A stretch of DNA of 64,000 nt from a virus. The stretch is from the IMG/VR virus record IMGVR_UViG_3300035661_000023, positions 1-64,000 of that record; one strand, written 5' to 3'. Shown here piece by piece: positions 2,187 to 64,000 of this stretch (position 1 is the stretch's first letter; the number at the start of each line of letters is the position of its first letter). Below the pieces are notes generated by a model. It was not told the DNA's origin. It did not search any database and saw nothing but the letters and a program-made list of their open reading frames with translations. A program made the position numbers and the translations under genes.

Positions 2187-3155
2187 TCAAAGAGTGTAAG
2201 CCATCCACTCGATAATGATACCACCATTGCCACCATTGCCACCTGCGGTATTGTTTTGGTTTGGGAATGATCCCTATCCACCCCCGCCCCCACCAAAAGC
2301 TCCACCGGAACCGGCACCGCCATTATAATTAATCTAAAAAGAACCCCCACCACCACCAGCAAACATCCCACCGTGCTGACCATAAACATCACTGTAAGTT
2401 TTGTAACTTTGTTGTCCACCTACTCCGGCACCACTCTAACTTCCTGTAGAAGTATATCCAGTAGGCTGTAAAATTCTGTTCGAGAAGATTGGTACAACAC
2501 CAGTTATAGTAGGTGTCAGTTGGCCAAAATTATACCTGTACAGGCCCCCTTCTGTGATATCAGACCCAGAAAGTTCCATTGCATTCATAAAACATGTCAA
2601 CTATGGATTCCCAGATGTGCCCGCGCCGCAGCCCGCGCCGGCATTTTGTGCATCACACACCTTGCCGTACACACCTACTGCTCCACCTCCCCCGCCAGCC
2701 AAATATCCTTGGCTGGCCATATACCCATTAGAACCGCGTCCGCCATTGATATTCATTACATTTCCGCCTGCTCCAGTACCACCAGATCCACCAGTACCAC
2801 CTAGTCCCGGGTTTAACCCTGCTCCCAAGCCACCCATTATCCCGCCATTAGCAGTAAGAATTCCGCTGCCATTAAGAGAAATCGTGGTATTGCCGCCATT
2901 TGAATCGAATGCACCAGCACCACAGATATATGTTAGAACATCACCAACTTCTAGTGTGATCAGGCTTTGTGCTAACCCACCTGCCCCGCCGCCACCTCCT
3001 CCATATTTTCCCCCACCCCCACCAGCGCCAATAGCAGTGATTAAGTATTTCGTTCTAATCCTTGCAGTAAATGTGCCAGAGAAAGTACTTGCATGAAACT
3101 GATATAGTCCTGTTGCACCAGAACCGCTGCCAAAAAATTGCTATACATTACTCAT
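2187..3155 (-). CDS. Glycine-rich tail-fibre/adhesin-like protein A
   Basis: MSNV*QFFGSGSG...KYLITAIGAGGGGG...GGAVGVYG...GGNGGIIIEWMAYTL. 322 aa once TAGs are read through. Paralog of 1231..2091. Confidence 0.75.
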
Positions 3156-3562
3156 CAGATACCTCTTGGAATTTCATTTGGTTGCACCGGAGCAGTCAGA
3201 ATCTGTGCCGCTCTACCCTGAGCAATAATACCCATCTGCTCTAGAGCATTCACACCAGAGATCGTTTCTTCTAGTGCCAGGTCAATATATGGAGCTGCAT
3301 TGACCTTCTATTGGAACCTGCGAAGTGATGCAGCAAGAATACTAGTGCCTTGAGAAGCGATGTCTAGAGCAATAGCTTCTGCATCTGTGAGACGATGCAG
3401 AAAAGCAAGTCTAGTCACTCTCATTGGCTCTGGCATCAAGTTCTTAACTTCAGGAATATCAAGAGCACGATACGTACCATGCTCAAAGTTCTATAACATG
3501 AATTCATTCTAGGCAGTGATTGTATTGATCACCTGTCCGTCTTTTAGAATTTCATAAATCAT
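3155..3562 (-). CDS. Tail-fibre-associated small protein (putative assembly chaperone), paralog A
   Basis: MIYEILKDGQVINTITA*NEFML*NF...VTRLAFLHRLTDAEAIALDIAS...ILTAPVQPNEIPRGI. 3 TAGs. TGATG overlap with the next gene. Confidence 0.7.
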
Positions 3563-3578
3563 TTGTTCTCCGATTACA

Positions 3579-5459
3579 TTAAGATATGGTCCAGCCGATG
3601 CCTTGATCCATGTAAGTGAATGTCAGCGTACTGTTATTGTAGTCGATGTTACAGTTCTCAGACAGAGACATGATATTCTGACCGTTGCGCATGACTGTAC
3701 ATGACTATGTCGCATGTTTGTATATAACAACCTTGTCCCCGGGAACTGGATTCGCCGGCAAGAATACATTGTTACCAGCCCACATGATACAGCAATCATT
3801 TGCCATGGCATATAAAGGAGTCCCAGCAGAACTACCCCCATTAACTACTCGCTGACCACCGATAGAAGTCCAGTCACCCCATACAGTACCTTCTGCAACT
3901 CGCAGGTACATTCTACTAGCATTACCAGCAGATAACTCCACTGCCAATTGAGCTGCATATCCAGTATTGTCATGGTAAAATACCAAAATGTGCCAATAAC
4001 CAGCCAGAGTGATTGCTGTACCAGTAGCATTATGCAAACCGTTTCCATCATTAGTATAGAAACCAGCCTCGAGTGTAGTAGACTGAAAGAATGCAGCAGT
4101 GTGCGGTGTGTCCTCAAAGATGGGAGTCCGTAACAGAGCACGAGCAGAAGCGACATCACTAATGCCGAACAGTGATTTACCTACAGTAGAACCGCCCAAA
4201 TTGGTCAATGCCTGAGAAGAAGTAGTCGCTGCAGTGCCACCCTATGTAATAGGAAGTGCAGTCATAAGTGACAGACTAGAAAGAGTACCAGCGCCCGCCG
4301 TGATCTATCCATTGTTACCGAATGAATGAGTAACACCTGAACCGTCAGCAGTAAGAATCTCTACTCTGTTATCTGCTACAACTTTTCTAACTTCTCTACC
4401 ACCCAACTTGAGCGCACCGGAGTATAGTACGGAACCAGAATCACCTTTAAAATCTGGCACACCAGTTAGATCAATATTAATCTTCTCTGAACCGGACAGT
4501 TTGATAGAAATTGGCTTATAAGCACCAGAGCCAAACTTACCAGATTCAATCACTGTTGCTTCTGCATCAACACCAACATTCACAAAACTTGTATTAGCAA
4601 TATCAGAACTTGAATAAGAAATTAGACCCGATGCAGTACCGCCACCATTTGGTGCAATACCAAGCTGCGCATTAGAATCTGCAGCAGAAGAAGTGATCAG
4701 GAATCTCTTAGTATGATCTGCATTACTCAAGTCGGCAATGATTTTTCTATTGTCACCAACGAATTCGTACGATCCATTGTGAGTAACATCTACATCACCT
4801 AGAGAAACAAGTCTCTGTGTTACATTGATAATCTCTGTGTAACCGGTTACTATCTTTGCAGTCAGTGTTCTTGCGGGTGTGAACTTAGTAAAGTCGCCTG
4901 ATTCCAACAGCGTGATCTCAAATGCTATGTGATCATATATTGCAGAGCCAGTTGGTACACAGAAGATTCTGATATTACCGGTTGGAGTAGTCCAAACTTC
5001 AAACTGGAGACTTTGTGGTAACTCATTTGACTCGTGGCTAGTCCAGTGGAATACAGTGATTGCAGAACCAGTGGTGGCTTGGAAATAGATCTTCCCTTTG
5101 CCTTCAAGTGTAGTAGTGCTCTACTTCTGCAACTGCGCGGAGATATCAAATATCGCCTTCTCACCATCATTTCCTCGTCCATAATCACCAATGAGAACAC
5201 CAGCAGTGGGCACAATACCGGAATATGCAATTGCATACTTTTTGATTCTACCTCCAGCTAAGTAGATATCATTCATGCGAACGATATCACTGAACACTGG
5301 GTTGGCAGCACTCGCTTTGGTGTTGATTTCCTCATTCAATGCCCAAAGGTTATAATCGCCTTCTGCATTGGTAAGAGGAGAACCTTTGATGGCAGAATCC
5401 TATATTACTGCCTATGGAATACCTGGGGTTGCTGTCTGTCTGTAGAATATATTTGCCAT
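3579..5459 (-). CDS. Tail fibre protein (626 aa)
   Basis: N-terminal KGSPLTNAEGDYNL motif, central LPIT*GGTAATTSSQALTNLG motif, C-terminal LPANPVPGD...RNGQNI...GW domain. Joins three in-frame track ORFs via TAG and ends in TAA. Confidence 0.75.
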
Positions 5460-13910: not shown

Positions 13911-14393
13911 TCAGTTAACGGTGATAGACCATGTGACAGTAAGAGAATCACCTGCTTCTTTGTTCACCACATTGAAAGTAGTTCTTGCCAGCATGTTGCC
14001 ACCTGAAGCTGCATCCATAATACCGGCTTCCTTAAGTGCACCAGTGCCAGCTCCCGGACCGAATAATGCAGTGTAAGTAACTGTAGGCCCAGTGCCTGTG
14101 TTTGCACCTGAGGAAAGAGTAAGTGCAACTCGACCGACTTCAGCACCGAGCCCCACATCGCCAGTAACTGCAGCTGTCTGCGTAGTACCAACTGCCATGT
14201 GCGACATAGGAGAAGTATATACTACACCTGATGCTGCTTGCCTCATGAGTCTGGCGATATAATCTTTACCAGATCCAACAACTAGGTTCTTCACCTCTCT
14301 GCTGTCTTTAACAGTGCCATCGGCTGCTGTTAGCTTAATCGTAAGTTGACCAGTAACTCCTGAATCACTTACTAATACTCTGTCATTGATCAT
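13911..14393 (-). CDS. Baseplate/tail-associated structural protein
   Basis: Intact track ORF with KNLVV..G...MAVGT...EAGI...MLARTTFNVVNK...DSLTVTWSIT. Confidence 0.7.
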   Translation of the reverse strand: MINDRVLVSDSGVTGQLTIKLTAADGTVKDSREVKNLVVGSGKDYIARLMRQAASGVVYTSPMSHMAVGTTQTAAVTGDVGLGAEVGRVALTLSSGANTGTGPTVTYTALFGPGAGTGALKEAGIMDAASGGNMLARTTFNVVNKEAGDSLTVTWSITVN

Positions 14394-16141
14394 TCTACGA
14401 TCTCCAATTGTATTGAGAAGAAACCACCTTCGGTGGACGGGTCGGTTACGTCAAAGAAGGAAGTTACGGAAATGTGCGCCACGGGGTAATTATAATCATT
14501 ATTTATGCCGTACCACGTGTCAGCTGACCCAGAAACATCCCCATAAGAATAATCGGGTTCCCAGCCTCCAAATGAAATATAGTCTGCTACTACATTCTTC
14601 TAGATATTCTTAGCAAGAGTTTCTGAAGGAGATATGTAATCTTCGAGTACCTTTTCAACATGCTTGATATTAAAGTCAAATGTTGATGTACCATCAAACA
14701 GAACTACATAATCTGAAGATATACTTCTCTAACCTGTAACAGCGTAATCCAATCCGTTCATTCTTCTCTATTGAATGAACGACTTAGTTCCGGCAGGGTG
14801 ATTAAATTTAATTATCTACTCTGCTTCTTTAAACTATTTCTATGTTTCAATAGTATAAGAATATGTCTGATAATAGAAACTATCTTGAATGATGGACTGA
14901 GCATCAGAAATTAATCCCGTCCAGTCATCGAATCTACCATTACTCTTTACGATATAATCAAATTTCTAGATCAATACTGTTCTGGATTCTTTCCATTGAT
15001 CTATTGTGTAAGAACTAAAATCCGTAAACAGAGTCGGTTTAGCCTGACTTACAGTCTGAATAAATGCCAAAGAACCATAATATGGTCCTACTTCCGGCAT
15101 CTGTTGCTTGTAGTAATCTCCAGACAGCATATACGTCTGAATCCAGGATCCACCATCAATAACCTCTGTCATACCTTCTATATCATCTAGAATATCAATT
15201 CTGTGATGTTCTGTGATAGCACCAGTAGTGAAATTGACTGAATCAATCTCCGATGTTATATTAATATTTCCGGTCGGAGGCTTCTAGAATGGATAAATTG
15301 TATACCATGAATTTTCTAATAATTCATAGCCATATTCTTTTATTTCTACAGTTTTGATCTACCCAGTACCAGTTGAACTGTACACCCTAGCAATTGTTGA
15401 TTTCTTCTATCCGGGAATCTAGAAAACCTGCCCTTTTTGCCAATACTTTCCGCCGGTATGGATATCAAAATGACTGAATGTCTTTTTAATAATACCTTCG
15501 TAGACCTTAATCCCATTTCGTTTAATCTGAAATTTTTGAAGATTACTCTCTGATGTTGTGTCAATATAGAACTGTTGTTTAGAATCAAAGAAGATCAATG
15601 AATCAGAATTGGAAACAACTTCTACTTTCTTGACATTTATAGAGAAAATACCCTTTGCATTGGCCCATGATAACTTATCGTATGGCTCAATCACGAACGC
15701 ATCTGATATTTTGTAAAGTGTCTATAGACGAATATGGTATTCCTGAGTCCATGTAGACTCAGAGGCACGAAGCATATTATACTTCGGATATGCTACTTCA
15801 ATTTCTTCACCGAATGCAATTCTGAATAAGAACTTAAGACATTTCTCAGTACCTTTATGAGAATATACTTCTGCTGCATTTCTTAGAAAATTGATAGTTG
15901 TTATATTTGAAAATGTTGGTACATCTATTGCAAATTGATTTCTGTAATGCTCAATGAAAACATCCAGATACTTTTCATCCAATGAGGAAGCAAGATCCAA
16001 ATCAGTAGCATAATTCAACTTACCATTGAACGTATCTTCTTCAATGAATCTATAGTATTCCTCTACGAATTGAATTAGATTCGGGAATTCTTCTCTAAAG
16101 AACTCCGGAAATCTATTGCTTGTTATTAGATCTGTTTTCAT
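14390..16141 (-). CDS. gp7: Baseplate wedge subunit, gp7-like
   Basis: PEFFREEFPNLIQFVEEYY...YSHKGTEKCLKFLFRIAFGEEIEV.YP and C-terminal QDSFYYQTYSY...HPAG. Continuous through TAGs and ends TGA overlapping the next ATG. Confidence 0.75.
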
Positions 16142-17928
16142 TTAATAGATGAGAATGTCTTCGACTACACTTTATCATAATCAACATAAGTAAGAACTTC
16201 ACAATCTTGATAATCTATTTTTATAATAGTGTCTCTCAATGGGATAACATCATAAGATGACACAAATATATCAAACCAGAAACCATCATCATATAAACTA
16301 GAAATTGTGATAGCATCAGTCTTGATAATGCCTTCTTTGAAATCAACTGTGCCGATCTATTGAATGAATTGATCTACACCTGAGGGTAGTACTTCATATA
16401 AATCCAATTTTCCAGCAAGTGAATTCATTAAGAAGAAAGAATTAGAAGATCCAGGAAGATAGAACCTGCTAGATTTAACCTATCCTGTTTTGATATCAAT
16501 GGGGTTATTTAATTTCACAGAATATGTTTCAGATGTGCCAACAATAATAGTAAGATACTGTTTGACATAAACCTTTGTCAAATTGCTAACAATACTATAA
16601 TCTGTAGAGTCAATGAGTTTAGTAAGAGTAGAATATCTGAAACTCTTTTTCAATGAATTCAAAGAATTAACATAATTCAAAACCCCATTCTTGATTAGAA
16701 CAGAAATATCATCAGCTGTTTTAGTTGTTTTATCAGGATTAAAATATACACCTGTTTTGATTACTAGATTAGTATATGTTGGATCTACAATAATAGGCTG
16801 AATAGAAAGCATTGATCTATTCGCCTTCAAGAACTCAACTATTTCAAATTTCTCATCTACAGAACATGCATTTCTATCAAATGGTTTTGCACAGATATAA
16901 ACTGACCCATATCTTGGTGGATAATGATCTTCACCTCCCCAGACGGAGACAGATTCAACAAATGGAAACTGTTGTAATATCTGTGAGATATAATCTTTAT
17001 CGGTTACAGCTCTATTCTGCGCAACATAATTGCGAGGTGCATTATACTTTACGGACTCAATTGATTCTGCATTTGCACCACCTGAAGATAATTCCAAAGT
17101 AGTCACTTGATAAAGTGCATCACCCCTGTATCCACCGGCATAATAGAACTGCCCACAATTATTTGCTGATTGTCCGGAAGAAGCATAATAATCCAAGTAA
17201 ACAACATTGCCAGTATCAATTGCTTTACCTAATACATCATTACCAAAATAAACTTCATAGAAAAGATCTTCTCTTTGTTTAACAAAATAAACAGTATCTT
17301 GACTGGAGACCTATAGAAGATCCAATGATCTATTAAATGTCTGGGATGATATATTGCTAACAGATTCTTGAACTCGCACTGTCAACGAAGTCATGTCGGC
17401 ATTCTTATTTGGGATGACAAATGTAGTACCGATTGAATTGACATAACTGGTCTGTATGTATGATCCTTCTATTACATCTACCTCAAATACGAATCTTCCA
17501 TTCAACAGTTCTGCAGTCTTAGCATAATAAGTCTGGAAAACATATTCATTGGTACCAATTACTCCACGAAACATCGTTCCCTTTGGTAGGGTTAATTGTG
17601 TCGATGTAAGATTTTGTACTTCCTACATCTCTACTCTGACTTTTGCTCTGGCAGATGTGACAGATTTGGCTGTATATCCAATTGATTTAGCCAGAGACAC
17701 AACACTCGAATACTTACTGGCAGAATCAATGAATGACTCGTTCAGAGCCATATTTGTATACAATGAATGATAATGTAGGTTATAAGCAAGAACATCAATT
17801 AATGTACTTAGAGCAGAACCCTCAAAGTTATAATCACTGAATGTAGCTTGACCTTGAAGGAATGTCTTAATATTTGCTTTAATTCCATCAAAATCCAACT
17901 AGTCTACTTTGATAAGATTATTACTCAT
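16138..17928 (-). CDS. gp6: Baseplate wedge subunit gp6
   Basis: LDFDGIKANIKTFL...FSDYNFEGSALSTLIDVLAYN...ESIESVKYNAPRNYVAQNRAVT..DY...VWGGE. ATGA overlaps at both ends once TAG is read through. Confidence 0.9.
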
Positions 17929-24302: not shown

Positions 24303-24890
24303 ATGACAGGACAGAACAGGAAAACGGTATTTGAGTTATCTAGAATCAATGCGGAGGAAGTTAAAAAGTCCTCCACTTGGTTTAATGAGCAAGTAAAAAG
24401 ACTATCGACGAAAAATATAACACCAAACCGAGTCATGAATGAAGGTGGTGTGCACCTGACTCGTAGATTAGTCCCAGGGAAGATGTACTTCTACTATTAT
24501 GACCCAAAGTTTAAAGAAACTCTGCCGTTCTATGACCAGTTCCCACTTGTGCTTCCATTTGCAAAAACTCCGGGTGGTTTCATCGGACTGAATATGCACT
24601 ATCTTGATTATAAGATGCGTATGACTTTGTTTCAGAATTTACTGGAAACAGCAGGTGCGAAACATCTGACAGAGACTGCAAAGATCAAATATTCATGGGC
24701 TACTATTGCTAATGCTTCCAGATTAGCTCCAGCACAGGCATGCGTGAAGAAATATCTAATGGATCATGTAATGTCACCATTCTGTGAAGTACCGCCAGAA
24801 TTCTGGCACACAGCAATGATGTTACCGGTACAAAGATTTGTTGGTGCGAGTAAAGAATCAGTTTGGAAAGAAAGTAGGAAATACAGATGA
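24303..24890 (+). CDS. gp2: DNA end protector gp2
   Basis: PGKMYFYYYDPKFKETLPFYDQFPLV...GLNMHYL...CVKKYL. Confidence 0.9.
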   Translation: MTGQNRKTVFELSRINAEEVKKSSTWFNEQVKRLSTKNITPNRVMNEGGVHLTRRLVPGKMYFYYYDPKFKETLPFYDQFPLVLPFAKTPGGFIGLNMHYLDYKMRMTLFQNLLETAGAKHLTETAKIKYSWATIANASRLAPAQACVKKYLMDHVMSPFCEVPPEFWHTAMMLPVQRFVGASKESVWKESRKYR

Positions 24891-26254
24891 GTGATGCTAA
24901 ATCAAACTTGAGCAATTTTGTTGCCAGAGTCAAAAAGAATGGTCTACTCTCTGCATCTCATTTCTATGTAGTCATACCTAATTTTAGCCCAAACGCTTCA
25001 GACAGAGATCTGCTAATGTTCTGCGATGCCGCTGATATTCCTGGCATAACTCTGATGACAACGGAGATCAGACAATTTGGAGAATTGACAACACTTCCAC
25101 ATGCTCCAATGTATCAACCCGTGCAGCTGTCTTTCATTTGTGATTCTACTATGGATGTTAAGTATGCATTAGAAAACTGGATAGATTCTGTCTTTAATAG
25201 AAATACAAGATCATTTAATTTCTATGATTCGTACACAAAAGATATTGAAATTTATATTGTAGATAAACAGGGGAATGATGTCCACAAAGTAACTCTGTAT
25301 GAAGCATATCCAGTTTCTATTGGCAATATTCAACTGGATTACTAGCAAGAATCTATTGTGAAGGTGCCAGTTACTATTGCATATAAGTGGTGGGAGACTA
25401 GTTTTTACGGTAGTTCATATAAAGAAGATCAATTCCAACTGAATAGACATCTACCAGTATCTGTGCCTGTGCGCATGGGTAATATTAAGCCAGGGACTGC
25501 ACACTATTTTAATGGACAAGAATTCTCTGGCTTTGAATTCCTACAGTAGAACTTAGTATTGTCTCCAGAAAATCAAGGTATCTTCACCGGTATCACAGAA
25601 TCTGGTAATACTACTGGCAATGTTATGGCGAATGGTTCATTCACATAGATTATTGGTAACAAATCACAAGATATCATTAATCTTGGAAATGAAGTACAAC
25701 AGTAGTTCGGTCGTGCTGGAAATGGTCTATCAGCCGCGATGATGGTAGCACAGACAACAACTAGTCAAGGTGTCACCTATGCATCACAGATGGCAGTACA
25801 TGCAAAGACTATATCATCTGATATGTCTGGCTACGCTCAAGGTCTTGTACAACTAGGCCAAAATATCTAGAGTATTACCAAACCTGCTAGCATGATAGGT
25901 ACCGCTGTTTCTTCTCTGGGTGGGACTCTCTCGTCTATAGATAGCACATTGCAAATGGTGGGAATTAGATCTTAGCCGTTTCAGAATGTTGCTAGAGAAT
26001 TATATGGGGTGGGAGGTAAGATCGGACAAGCCGTTAACTTGCATGGACTCGCAGGGGGTTTGCAAACTGTCGGTGCTAATATGTCTGCAACTAGTTCCAT
26101 ATTCCAGTAGGTATAGAGCCAATTGGCTGGAAAAGAAGGTTTCTCTAAACAGATTGAGACTGCAATGACACAGATGGGCAGAGCGTTCTAGAACAACGGC
26201 TCGAATACTATGAACGCAGCAAATGTGTTAGAAAATAGGGCAGGAGAATTTTAA
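24887..26254 (+). CDS. gp54: Tail-tube initiator gp54-like protein with a long C-terminal extension
   Basis: Tail-tube fold (CDAADIPG...LYEAYPVSIGNIQLDY*QE...VTIAYKWW). The frame continues through TAGs to a TAA overlapping the next ATG. Confidence 0.7.
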
Positions 26255-60757: not shown

Positions 60758-61416
60758 TTGTTCCACTCCGCCCACATACCTGTTGCTGGGGCATAATATG
60801 CACCGCGATTTTGGTACAGTTTGAACTATCTTTTTACATCGAATTTCAGTTCCAATTTATCAGGCGCAACTGGCATCTCATAGAAATCATTACCCTTTTT
60901 TGAAGCTAATGGGACTCCTCCAGCATTCATGATCTGTTGTGCTATCTTTTCATCATATGAATCCTTAAGGATTCGAACAAAACCGTGTATTTTAACACCT
61001 GGGATCTTGTACAGCTATTGCCAATTACGTCTGCCACCTGCTGTCTATAAATTGTCTGCTGCTATATTGAATCCAAGAATACTCATAGCAATCCCGTAGA
61101 GACTCTTTGCCATACCTCTGCCTCTTAATTCGGGATTGACATGGATTAGAGATGCTACTCTAACAGGCACGGGGTAGTCGGTTGGATACCGATTTGTCAA
61201 TTCTAAGAATCCAGCCTCTACTAACTCTTCTTTTTTAGTGTCAGCATAGATCACAATGACGAGTGTATCACCTCGTTTTTCAGACAACCAAAATAGATCA
61301 GAGCCACCAGGAAGTGGCTTTAGCTTTTTGTCTGTCTTTGCAATCGAGCTCGCCGGTTGTAGTGTGAAAGGATAGACCTTATTGATTTCGTTAAGATATT
61401 CTTTAAACGACAACAT
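60754..61416 (-). CDS. GNAT-like acetyltransferase with a capsid-targeting-like N-terminus
   Basis: MLSFKEYLNE...VNPELRGRGMAKSLY (acetyl-CoA motif A)...DNL*TAGGRRNW. ATGA overlap with the next gene. Confidence 0.7.
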
Positions 61417-61417
61417 G

Positions 61418-62473
61418 TCAACAGAATCGGAGAGTAAATTTCTGCCATTCTTCCTATGAACCACCCATTTTTTCTACACCAGCTCTTGTATTAAGAGCTC
61501 GAACAAAAGAACGAATGTTAGCTGTCTTTTCTGGGATTTTTCTCTTTTTCAGAATTTCGATGATTTCTTTTCGTTCTGCTTCATCCAACTTATAGTCAAC
61601 ATCAAGAGGAATCTTCATACAGATCTTGCCAAGGAAGTCATAGATTTCTTCATTTGTAGGATCGATGTTGATAATATATCCACGAGTACGCAGAGCACCA
61701 TCTGGGTCCAATTTGTTTAGTTGCAGATTGGAAATACCAATGATCTTGCCGGTAAACTCAAATGAACGGGGTAGTTCATCCTGCTCCCCTTCTGAATCCC
61801 AATCATAATCAGCAGCATCAACATAATTCTTGCCACCTTTTTGCCAAGAAATTTTTCTAACTTTTTTAGTATCGGCTGCGGCTTTGAACAAATTCCTAGA
61901 ATCAACATCTAAGAAAGCGCCATCACTGTCGTCAAAAAGTATAATTTCTTTGCGATGCTGAAATAGAATTCTATAGATACCAGCAGTGGACGCAGTGCCT
62001 GTTATTTTTACATACCCATCACCATCTGTTTTACCTGCAGCCTTCAGCTCATCTTCAACGTTTTGCGTTTTACCGGTATTATGGTGATTGATACCATCTG
62101 CGGTTAGATATGTATGCTTCTCCGAATCTACTTCCATGTCGTAGAATTCGGATTCTCCATAAGTAGAAATATCTGCTACTTTTACCGTACCATTAATAGT
62201 TTCAATCTCATCTCCCACAGAAAGATCACGAGCGAATATTTTACCATCTGGAGACATAAAAATATGTTCAGACGAGCATTCTACTGTAGCACCGGAATCA
62301 AATACCACAGATGTCGATCTTCCAGTTTTTACAACAAAACTTTTCACAGGTTTAAAACCATCTTTTGTTTCGATTTTGATCTTAAGATCAGAGATATTAT
62401 AAAAAGTTCCGATGTCTAGCTTACCGAACTTCTCTTCTACCATCTATTTAATTGCCGACAGAGTTGTTTTCAT
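61418..62473 (-). CDS. C-intein (132 aa) fused to the C-extein of a P-loop ATPase
   Basis: MKTTLSAIK*MVEE...VECSSEHIF (block B)...FYDMEV...YLTADGINHHN|TGKT...IILFDDSD (Walker B)...FEFTGKIIGISN...ALRTR. Confidence 0.88.
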
Positions 62474-62566
62474 TTAGTTCTTTCAAATAAGAGATTGAGA
62501 TTATCTTGATTATTTATCAATTCATTCATTTCATCTAAAATAGAGTTGAAATTGGAAATTATAAGT

Positions 62567-63502
62567 TTAACCTATTTGAATATTAATTTCAGTCTTGCCG
62601 GCTAAACAGCCCCCTCTTCCAGAAATGAACAGGGCTTGAGTTGCATTCTACATCAGAAGTTTCATAGCAGTCTTCAAAGAATCTAGCTGCTCCTCGTATG
62701 ACAGACGCTCGATATCTGCTTCAGATGTACCTTCGACTTCAACTTCTTCTTTCTACCCAGGTTGAACAGAGTAAGAAACAACTTCATCATCCCCACTTAC
62801 TGCTGCCAGGATCTTTGCTGCATCTAACTTAGCAACAACTTGTTGATTTACTACATTCTTGGTACCTTCCTTCTGTAGGATGTTTGGGTACATTTTGATA
62901 ATGAGACCGTTGATCATGTTCCAGCCTGCGCCAAATTTCTTTGAACCCCCGGCCTTATATTGATCGTTCATATGAATACCTTGCTTCCATGCTGCAATAA
63001 CGGCAGTGAGAGTCTTGGAAATTTCACCAGAAGAATATCTAGCTTCATTGATTTCAGCTACACGAGTGAAGTCTGTTATCATTGGTATGTGCTGAATCTA
63101 CACAAACTCATTAATGTAGAAACCAGATTTATCTAAACCACCCTGTATTAGGTCTACCACCATTGGGAGAACTTTAATAATCTACTGCTCATGATCTAGT
63201 TTAATATGATGAGATGGGTTTGGCTGTGGAGTCTTAGAACCATCCCAGAAATCGATGGAAACTAGTCCCTGTGAGCCGATTTTACCAACTGTTTTCCAGT
63301 TCATACGTACGGATTTAGCACTCCCTCCATCCATGATAAAGAATCTGACACCAACATGTTGTACACCACCTGATGGAATAAAAACTTCTGGTGTTGGGTA
63401 TGGGAACACTTTATTCCCAAGTTTTGAACGCAGATACTTCATGATTAGAAGTTGCGAGGATGTAAAATCTTTTGAGCGAATTGCTTCGGTAATTAGGTTC
63501 AT
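62567..63502 (-). CDS. N-extein of the P-loop ATPase plus a 13-aa N-intein
   Basis: MNLITEAIRSKD... runs through TAGs to ALFISGRGG|CLAGKTEINIQIG-TAA. Confidence 0.85.
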
Positions 63503-63563
63503 GTTGAAAATATCTCCATCTAATATGTTGATCATGAAGCTATTTAATCAATATCTACTTGCT

Positions 63564-63584
63564 AAAAAGCCCTCCGAAGAGGGC
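63564..63584 (-). terminator. Intrinsic terminator
   Basis: GCCCTC TTCG GAGGGC TTTTT on the minus strand, a UUCG tetraloop hairpin with a U-tract. Confidence 0.8.
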
Positions 63585-63600
63585 AATTATTATGCAATTA

Positions 63601-64000
63601 TCAGATTTTCACAAATGTGATGTGCTGTTCTTTTTCTCTTGGGAGAACTTCACCATACGAATTGCGAATATCACAATTTACATTCCATGCATCACGAAGA
63701 ATACTCAAAGACATATCTGAAAAATGTATCAATGCCGGGACATCTTTGCTAAAACATGCAGATCCAGTTCCAGCTCTTCCATCATGCCCAGGTACAACAC
63801 TATGACTTTGTCCTATGCGAGGGTCACATGTGAATGCATCTCTGACTGTGTCGTAAGCAGCACCATGTTTTTCCATCAATTCTTTCATCTGGTTCCAGAA
63901 AACAACTTTCAATGCAAGATATGAGTTGATGGAATACTTGGTAAATGATGCCTCTTTTGCAGACATTTTCTTCACAGGACATTTATTGCAAATGCTATAT
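63601..64000 (-). CDS. UDP-glucose/GDP-mannose dehydrogenase family, C-terminal part
   Basis: EASFTKYSINSYLALKVVFWNQ...DPRIG.SH..VPG.DG..G.GSACFSKD. Confidence 0.85.
   Translation of the reverse strand, partial: YSICNKCPVKKMSAKEASFTKYSINSYLALKVVFWNQMKELMEKHGAAYDTVRDAFTCDPRIGQSHSVVPGHDGRAGTGSACFSKDVPALIHFSDMSLSILRDAWNVNCDIRNSYGEVLPREKEQHITFVKI

Follow-up and report, generated by a model that had tools for sequence, protein, structure and literature searches.

The split ATPase locus

The sequence analysed here, referred to as the window, is the stretch of 64,000 nucleotides (nt) at positions 1 to 64,000 of the IMG/VR virus record IMGVR_UViG_3300035661_000023. Close to its right end, two consecutive genes on the minus strand encode the two parts of a phage P-loop ATPase, which is broken within its Walker A loop, and at the break each gene also carries a part of what is predicted to be a mini-intein. 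The minus strand of positions 61300-64000 was read with TAG translated as a sense codon. From the ATG at 63502, the frame of the first (N-precursor) gene passes through four in-frame TAG codons to reach ...ALFISGRGG, and continues through the 13-residue N-terminal intein piece (IntN), CLAGKTEINIQIG, to the TAA at 62569-62567. The frame of the second (C-precursor) gene, from the ATG at 62473, is 351 codons long and begins MKTTLSAIK-TAG-MVEEKFGK... It includes ...VECSSEHIF..., containing the block B His, ...EFYDMEVDSEKH... with FYDMEV (block F), and ...GINHHN, the last codon of which ends at 62078. GINHHN closes the C-terminal intein piece (IntC) and is followed by TGKTQNVEDEL..., from where the frame runs to the TGA at 61420-61418. 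Neither reading frame (311 and 351 codons) is broken by a TAA, TGA or frameshift. The features of the locus are as follows, with the evidence for each in brackets.

62567..63502, minus strand: N-precursor gene, consisting of a 298-codon N-extein, the 13-codon N-intein piece and TAA (translation; the N-extein matches the first ~300 residues of the single-gene homologs L007, at 3128-4657, and P0002)
62609..63502, minus strand: N-extein coding part, ending ...ALFISGRGG, the first half of the Walker A loop (in relatives ...GGRGG runs straight into TGKT)
62570..62608, minus strand: IntN, 13 residues, CLAGKTEINIQIG, with the Cys1 codon at 62608-62606 (aligns with the first 13 residues of the contiguous inteins of P0002, P0006, P0010 and L030 and with the 13-amino acid (aa) IntN of L015, L019 and L175)
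62567..62569, minus strand: TAA stop closing the N-precursor (sequence)
62474..62566, minus strand: in-frame spacer of 93 nt and 21.5% GC that contains no open reading frame (ORF) and another six TAA/TGA stops (sequence)
61418..62473, minus strand: C-precursor gene, consisting of a 132-codon IntC, a 219-codon C-extein and TGA (translation; the N-terminus MKTTLSAIK resembles MKTTLSNIE in P0024 and is like MKKLNTIQD in L019)
62078..62473, minus strand: IntC, 132 residues, with the block B His, block F Asp and terminal His-Asn (phmmer matches; invariant H, D, H and N columns; match to VidaL 6vgv)
62444..62446, minus strand: in-frame TAG, codon 10 of IntC (translation)
62441..62443, minus strand: alternative ATG right after the codon-10 TAG, start of a 329-aa standard-code ORF (ORF list)
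61421..62077, minus strand: C-extein, beginning TGKTQNVEDEL (second half of Walker A, with Thr+1) and including the Walker B sequence ILFDDSD (PHROG 1250, E 2e-21; 67-70% identity to the intein-free relatives L004-L011)
61420-61418, minus strand: TGA stop of the C-precursor gene (sequence)
63182-63184, 63098-63100, 62753-62755 and 62648-62650 (N-precursor gene) and 61454-61456 (C-precursor gene), minus strand: other in-frame TAG codons (translation)

The start of the N-precursor gene at 63502 (MNLITEAIR) was favoured over an upstream ATG at 63535, as relatives begin MSQLNEAIR or MIQLNEAIS. The N-precursor gene breaks into small ORFs under the standard code, and the last of its TAG-free stretches, on which IntN lies, has only some 26 codons; IntN is therefore missed by standard gene calling. 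An earlier examination of the same DNA (the original prediction) had placed the two genes, Cys1, blocks B and F, HHN and TGKT at these coordinates, and the minus-strand translation bore this out. The 93-nt spacer was also as described, its several in-frame stops numbering six (three TGA, three TAA) beyond the closing TAA, as was the concealment of the system from standard gene calling by TAG codons in both halves, four in the N-precursor gene and two in the C-precursor gene.

Homologs of the ATPase and the insertion point

A tblastn search of phage genomes with the C-precursor gene detected homologs in more than 1100 records, including a 642-kb uncultured phage and T4-like phages. The homologs in huge and T4-type phages are single genes with an intact P-loop (ITGMAGVGKT, SGAAGIGKT, SGKGGVGKT). 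The N-precursor gene had no tblastn match in this phage collection, and when both halves were searched against PHROGs only the C-extein gave a match. The ATPase family is without a curated name: PHROG 1250 is recorded as function unknown, and in Pfam there were only sub-threshold AAA/STAND matches.

The nearest relatives in IMG/VR, 67-70% identical in the C-extein, have a single gene of 500-509 aa reading ...LMSNATNSMWVGGRGGTGKTQTVED..., and in the closest the uninterrupted gene reads ...GGRGGTGKTQTVED, with GRGG directly joined to TGKT. Because related phages carry one uninterrupted gene of ~505 aa reading GGRGGTGKT, the insertion point is exact. Taken together, the exteins match single-gene homologs end to end, and the predicted spliced product of 517 aa (298 + 219) is near the length of the relatives. 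Among the 80 best IMG/VR loci, 69 are uninterrupted, three (L030-32) contain a contiguous 151-aa intein and eight are split. The 69 uninterrupted loci are continuous at GRGG[TVI]GKT, making this an in-frame insertion at a conserved host site, and the ATPase has been kept across hundreds of phage contigs. Uninterrupted homologs containing GRGGTGKT, which the original prediction had suggested looking for, were thus present among the IMG/VR relatives, and its proposal that joining GRGG to TGKT would rebuild the P-loop agrees with their unbroken sequence.

In all of the intein-bearing alleles seen, GRGG is followed by Thr at position +1; of the 69 intein-free alleles, 60 have Val or Ile there. A Thr at +1 in all of the intein-bearing alleles would be expected if the +1 nucleophile is needed. 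Thr is also found after GRGG in the intein-free alleles closest to the intein-bearing ones, and over the loci compared (L013-L092, L175-L254) the residue tracks intein status.

The two halves together resemble a complete mini-intein

The 122 IntC residues of the standard-code ORF, from the ATG at 62443, were used as the query in a full HMMER (phmmer) search, which retrieved 539 representative proteins at E<=1e-3 (best E 4e-33). By sequence comparison, the homology of the locus is far beyond chance. In the best match, P0002 (E 4e-33, 57% identity), the ATPase is the same and its intein is contiguous, reading GRGG/CLAPETLVNVDFNG...HHN/TGKT, and the inteins of P0006 and P0010 are contiguous as well. 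P0003, P0004, P0005, P0024 and P0040 are proteins consisting of IntC and C-extein that start at the same point as the C-precursor gene of the window.

Cys1 (62608-62606) stands directly after GRGG, and the position of the nucleophile is fixed by the intein-free homologs that read GRGGTGKT. The catalytic set is complete, comprising Cys1, the block B His, the block F Asp, the terminal His-Asn and Thr+1, and in an alignment of 43 sequences the block B His, block F Asp, terminal His and Asn are invariant.

The fold was predicted from a read-through polypeptide (P0152), obtained by translating 62623-62063 with the stops read as Gly or Ser, so that the spacer becomes a linker, and aligned with 42 homologs. 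The AlphaFold2 model had a mean predicted local distance difference test score (pLDDT) of 88.6 and a predicted template modelling score (pTM) of 0.83, with a pLDDT of ~91 for the IntN hairpin, above 95 for IntC and low values in the linker. IntN forms the first beta-hairpin of the model (strand at P0152 residues 12-17). The 50 best Foldseek matches in the Protein Data Bank (PDB) were all inteins or close HINT-fold relatives (bacterial intein-like domains), headed by VidaL (6vgv, E 3e-9). A VIA-align comparison with VidaL gave a Z of 19.8 and a root mean square deviation of 2.4 Å, aligning 143 of 145 VidaL residues over model residues 3-185, with the N-terminal piece included; all of the top VIA matches were inteins (Z 15-20). 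VidaL was also the best PDB match by sequence (6vgv, E 1.3e-7 over 128 residues). Residue 17 of VidaL, the first of its IntC, aligns seven residues into the IntC of the window. On this model, the read-through polypeptide is predicted to adopt the HINT fold. The original identification as a mini-intein was upheld by the fold, a HINT domain closest to VidaL, and by the two halves together making up a complete intein that is collinear with contiguous ones.

The same split in other phage lineages

DNA sequences were examined for loci encoding IntC and C-extein, and the split loci found in IMG/VR, together with three from metagenome contigs, are listed below.

L015: IntN of 13 aa, CLSADTAIVATQD; a 417-aa ORF lies between the halves and overlaps the IntC gene
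L019, L020, L022 and L023: IntN of 13 aa, CLSADTEINATME; spacer of 144 nt; four contigs from three sample accessions
L016-L018: IntN begins with Ser1; 351-aa ORF with a DUF559/Vsr-like domain above the Pfam cut-off
L175: IntN of 13 aa, CLSADTELDIRTE; 13 nt between the halves, with the IntC ATG in another frame
L176: upstream part off the contig; an endonuclease-like ORF directly before the IntC gene
L178: IntN of 15 aa; a 433-aa ORF, then an IntC gene started by GTG
L186: IntN of 26 aa; about 300 nt between the halves

At least six other lineages are split at the same structural point, with an IntN of 13-15 residues or of 13 residues plus a tail. Some relatives have a contiguous intein of 148-151 aa at the same ATPase site, and the lengths of IntN and IntC in the split forms add up to 145-150 aa. 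In the alignment the split and contiguous forms are collinear with nothing missing, and the interruption comes directly after residue 13, the next aligned residue being the initiator Met of the split forms.

L015 and L019, which have the split in common, are separated by a synonymous divergence (dS) of ~1. The ratio of nonsynonymous to synonymous substitution rates (dN/dS) for this pair was 0.12 in IntC, 0.115 in the C-extein, 0.26 for the 13 IntN codons and 0.28 in the N-extein. These low values mean that the split intein is maintained like the enzyme it interrupts. In the window, the ratio of IntC identity to extein identity was 0.59-0.90, compared with 0.54-1.01 for other pairs, and the IntC is not unusually diverged. 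The split after ~13 residues, put forward in the original prediction from this locus, is supported by several diverged phage lineages, in which the same break is found and evolves under purifying selection.

Two kinds of intervening gene were seen (L015:1225-2478, L178:1173-2474, L176:2-361 and L016:1387-2442). The first kind encodes 417-433 aa with repeated helical modules of ~22 residues (...EHWL.KGYS..EAK.KVSE.Q...) and a C-terminal ...Y.I....VKIGIT..., and these proteins had no Pfam match at E<=0.1. The second, of 351 aa, has similar repeats and the DUF559/Vsr-like domain. Both kinds presumably encode homing endonucleases. Over a 165-nt alignment that starts ~70 nt before the start of IntC, L019 is 77% identical to L015. 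The last ~70 nt of the L019 spacer correspond to the 3' end of the gene between the halves in L015, which makes this spacer the remnant of a lost gene. In L175 (L175:567-624, OGVV01002779.1) the IntN ORF stops at the TAA at 606-608 and the IntC ATG, preceded by GGGAA, is at 622. This layout is either the most compact of the split forms or a one-base assembly error in a contiguous intein.

The C-extein of the window is 68-71% identical to those of L175, L176 and P0002, and its IntC is only 40-50% identical to theirs. The IntC is at the same distance from lineages whose exteins have diverged much further, and the histories of intein and extein disagree. This discordance points to an exchange of inteins between alleles or to faster evolution of the intein.

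The spacer and the start of the C-precursor gene

The GC content of the spacer, 21.5%, compares with 39.9% for the whole window. It had no match in Rfam and folded no better than shuffled sequences (z 0.42). A -10-like TATAAT is located right after the TAA, but promoter-like sites in the region did not exceed the shuffled expectation, and no terminator-like site was found between the two genes. Ribosomal bypass of the spacer was rejected, since the spacer offers no landing codon to match the take-off codon, GGT, and no hairpin; a structured RNA or intron was likewise rejected on the Rfam and folding results.

The sequence GAAAGAAC is found 4 nt upstream of the C-precursor ATG. The same motif precedes the ATG of the gene at 17928, and similar purine-rich stretches precede other genes. 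The start is supported by the N-terminal peptide, which is conserved in other lineages. In a shifted frame the spacer is open and ends in a TGA that overlaps the C-precursor ATG. When this shifted-frame peptide was compared with the C-termini of the intervening endonucleases of L015, L016, L176 and L178 and with the L019 stump, p was 0.03-0.7 (0.03-0.2 for the endonuclease C-termini), a similarity that is not significant, and no significant nucleotide match was found. By analogy with L019, it is plausible that the spacer of the window is the stump of a lost endonuclease gene.

Decoding of TAG

At three of the four TAG sites in the N-precursor gene the residue in relatives is mostly Ser (8/8, 6/8 and 7/8), and at the fourth it is Ser in five of eight with Gly and Thr in the rest. 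A second comparison was available from L095, a relative with 84% identity in the query protein. In this pairing TAG faces TAG 38 times and, when both directions are counted, Ser codons 32 times and Gln codons 15 times; the Ser codons facing TAG are mostly TCT or TCA, which are two changes away. Reading TAG as Ser, as the original prediction had done, is favoured over Gln by both the residues in relatives and the codon comparison. A search of 97 kb, made up of the window and the remaining 33 kb of the record, detected no tRNA and so no suppressor tRNA, and literature searches found no paper on TAG-to-Ser recoding in phages. With TAG as the tenth codon of IntC, the real start of the C-precursor protein is a matter of how and when this codon is read. 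A start at the ATG at 62443 would place the beginning of IntC three residues past the point that aligns with the IntC start of VidaL.

In-frame TAG codons are frequent across the window, for example in the genes at 14390-16141 and 24863-26254, and look like Ser rather than the usual Gln. Several consecutive genes near the ATPase share an N-terminal motif, reading MLSFKEYLNE and MISFKEYKL in the window (61414-61385 and the 60775 region). In L005 the motif appears as MISFKEYLSE, MISFKSFISE, MISFREYLEE and MITFKEYLDE (2503, 2862, 3152, 4667, 4957). The ATPase homolog of L005 also starts in this way (MISFKNYLSE); that of the window does not have the motif.

Interpretation and alternatives

We consider it likely that the locus is a functional, trans-splicing, naturally split intein of the S1 type (broken right after beta-strand 2) in the Walker A loop of a phage P-loop ATPase of the PHROG 1250 family. 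Two polypeptides would be made, one consisting of the 298-aa N-extein and the 13-residue IntN and the other of the 132-aa IntC and the 219-aa C-extein. The 13-mer would dock on IntC as the first beta-hairpin and complete the HINT fold. An N-S acyl shift by Cys1, attack on the thioester by the Thr+1 hydroxyl, cyclisation of the terminal Asn and an O-N shift would then yield a 517-aa ATPase with an intact P-loop, GRGGTGKT. The conservation of Cys1 (Ser1 in L016-L018), His-Asn and Thr+1 in all of the intein-bearing alleles can be accounted for only by the chemistry of splicing. By analogy with the arrangements in relatives, a free-standing homing endonuclease gene probably created the split by inserting after residue 13, and has since been lost. 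A more ambitious proposal, to which we give slightly less than even credence, is that the 13-residue piece is a fully active natural IntN, the shortest known, in an undescribed family of phage ATPase inteins (IntN of 13-15 aa; Cys1 or Ser1; Thr+1) that splice efficiently with synthetic peptides, and that assembly of the ATPase is also gated by decoding of the six in-frame TAG codons, one of them at IntC codon 10.

Several points weigh against a functional split intein. No near relative of the window shares its split, the closest extein relatives being free of inteins or having a different intein lineage at 40-50% identity, and the codon comparisons indicate purifying selection in sister lineages only, not in the window's own. 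The C-precursor gene lacks a strong Shine-Dalgarno sequence, and its tenth codon is TAG. No independent copy of the exact junction was found in a metagenome scan with the window IntC or in IMG/VR with a 37-nt junction pattern, scans that excluded the record of the window itself; in the 84%-identical relative L095 the sequence ends short of the ATPase. The fold model relied on a read-through linker that is artificial, and contiguous homologs were part of its alignment. Neither half had a Pfam match at E<=1, to the intein models or to any other. The contiguous intein of P0002 matched Intein_splicing only below the Pfam cut-off, and judging from these searches the Pfam models are insensitive to this lineage, as HMMER searches against PDB and metagenome proteins do find inteins. 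We infer trans-splicing, as well as expression and association of the halves, from comparative and structural evidence.

Some of these points would also fit a dead relic, in which the ATPase gene was broken by invasion of an intein and endonuclease, the pieces form a non-splicing pseudo-intein and stay unjoined, and the phage can do without the ATPase. No endonuclease gene is left, only a 93-nt AT-rich spacer, the closest extein relatives have no intein at all, the evidence of selection is confined to sister lineages, and the initiation region of the C-precursor gene is weak, with a TAG soon after the start. However, both frames (311 and 351 codons) are intact, all of the catalytic residues have been kept, IntC has diverged from its counterparts no more, relative to the extein, than in other lineages, its dN/dS in the sister split lineages is 0.12, and the ATPase is conserved in hundreds of phage contigs. 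We therefore regard a relic as unlikely.

Split intein halves are able to associate tightly, and the intein pieces might simply hold the two polypeptides together without splicing, giving a non-covalent two-subunit ATPase. Such association is established and the chemical steps of splicing rest on inference here, but the break is inside Walker A (GRGG / TGKT), and an unspliced complex would have ~145 intein residues in the phosphate-binding loop. The splicing residues at both junctions have also been retained throughout the intein-bearing alleles, and a non-covalent two-subunit ATPase is very improbable. It is hardly credible that there is no real split and that the phage has a contiguous intein, with a spacer that arose through faulty assembly or sequencing, is bypassed by the ribosome or is removed as RNA. 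The spacer is in frame, for which the chance is one in three, and no second assembly of the junction turned up in the metagenome and IMG/VR scans. Yet the spacer is additional to what contiguous inteins have, as these require no sequence between residues 13 and 14; it contains six stops, and it shows neither an Rfam match nor unusual RNA structure. The same two-ORF layout is also present in several independent contigs and lineages, some of which have a gene of 1-1.3 kb between the halves.

Comparison with known systems

The IntN pieces of natural atypical split inteins are 15-37 aa long (PMC13014065, PMC10189870). Natural inteins split at site S1 include VidaL, with an IntN of 16 aa, and PolB16 OarG, with 15 aa (PMC13014065, PMC10189870), the latter described as 'record-short' and 'the shortest characterized so far' (PMC10189870). 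Splits at site S2, after helix alpha1, are found in AceL-TerL (25 aa) and GOS-TerL (37 aa) (PMC13014065, PMC11766414), and an 11-aa IntN has been engineered in Ssp DnaB M86 (PMC13014065, PMC3620165). The 13-aa IntN had originally been placed at the very short end of the range and, with 15 aa the shortest characterised among reported natural forms (PMC13014065, PMC10189870), that placement holds. For protein semisynthesis there is demand for split inteins whose N-fragment is very short, as such a piece can be made chemically and brings little baggage. A natural 13-mer, two residues below the shortest characterised, would be a modest record, and diverged natural variants are on offer in L015, L019, L175 and L178 and in the Ser1 form of L016.

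The S1 split itself is widespread. Of the 150 top-ranking representative IntC homologs, 60 start no more than 12 residues from the IntC start of the window, 59 of them with Met. About 30 of the 150 clusters start at the S1 point and belong to many host proteins (the ATPase of the window, MoxR-like ATPases, helicases and PhoH-like proteins), while about 25 start ~10 residues later and are terminases of the AceL/GOS type. Searches of IMG/VR for the loci of S1-type homologs in other host proteins (P0013, P0027) found none. The counts suggest, from protein sequences, a large and mostly uncharacterised pool of S1-split inteins. No new principle is involved, since with ~30 of the 150 best homolog clusters starting at the same structural point, S1 inteins are common in metagenomes.

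Like the window intein, Ssp DnaB M86 is split at this position and has an even shorter N-fragment usable as a synthetic peptide, but the split is artificial and the intein evolved in the laboratory. The Pyrococcus horikoshii RadA intein (PDB 4e2t/4e2u) also interrupts an ATPase P-loop and has Thr at +1, and structurally it matches well (Z 18.9). It differs in being contiguous, archaeal and at a different position in the loop. AceL-TerL, GOS-TerL and Cat are phage-borne natural split inteins with short N-fragments (PMC11766414, PMC13014065), and CatC was the second-best PDB match by sequence. They are split one element later, at S2, with an IntN of 25-37 aa, and the host is the large terminase. 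PolB16 OarG is a metagenomic, natural S1 split with a very short IntN that has been used with synthetic IntN peptides (PMC10189870). However, its IntN is 15 aa, it is cysteine-less (Ser1), its host is a PolB-type DNA polymerase, and as a structural match it is weaker (Foldseek ranks 48-50).

VidaL (PDB 6vgv/6vgw; Neugebauer 2017 and Burton 2020, as cited in PMC13014065) is the best match in both sequence and structure, which agrees with the assignment in the original prediction to the atypical type with short N-fragments. Both are natural, cysteine-dependent S1 splits just after beta-strand 2. In the VidaL structure construct the intein is followed by Ser-Gly-Lys, and it too appears to be placed before the GK of a P-loop. 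The differences are an IntN of 16 rather than 13 aa, Ser rather than Thr at +1, another host protein and an identity of only 21-25%, as well as the start of the window IntC seven residues before the point aligned with the IntC start of VidaL.

The layout of the relatives recalls the 'fractured gene' arrangement, in which a free-standing endonuclease gene lies between the halves of a split intein, mainly in phages; Dassa et al. 2009 (PMC2677866) describe this arrangement and also report Vsr-like endonucleases and loci without an endonuclease. L015, L016, L176 and L178 conform to that description in having an ORF between the halves, Vsr/DUF559-like in L016, while in the window the halves are separated by only a 93-nt spacer with no ORF. 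The ATPase was not among the hosts named in the passages of Dassa et al. 2009 (PMC2677866) that were consulted. Overall, the split-intein anatomy, homology and recurrence that underlie the original interpretation stand, with the qualification that an S1 split within a fractured-gene layout was already known and is common in metagenomes. What is new is the host protein and the insertion site, GRGG^TGKT. At this one site, intein-free alleles, contiguous inteins, splits with an endonuclease gene and splits with a remnant form a series of states that documents how phage genes become fractured.

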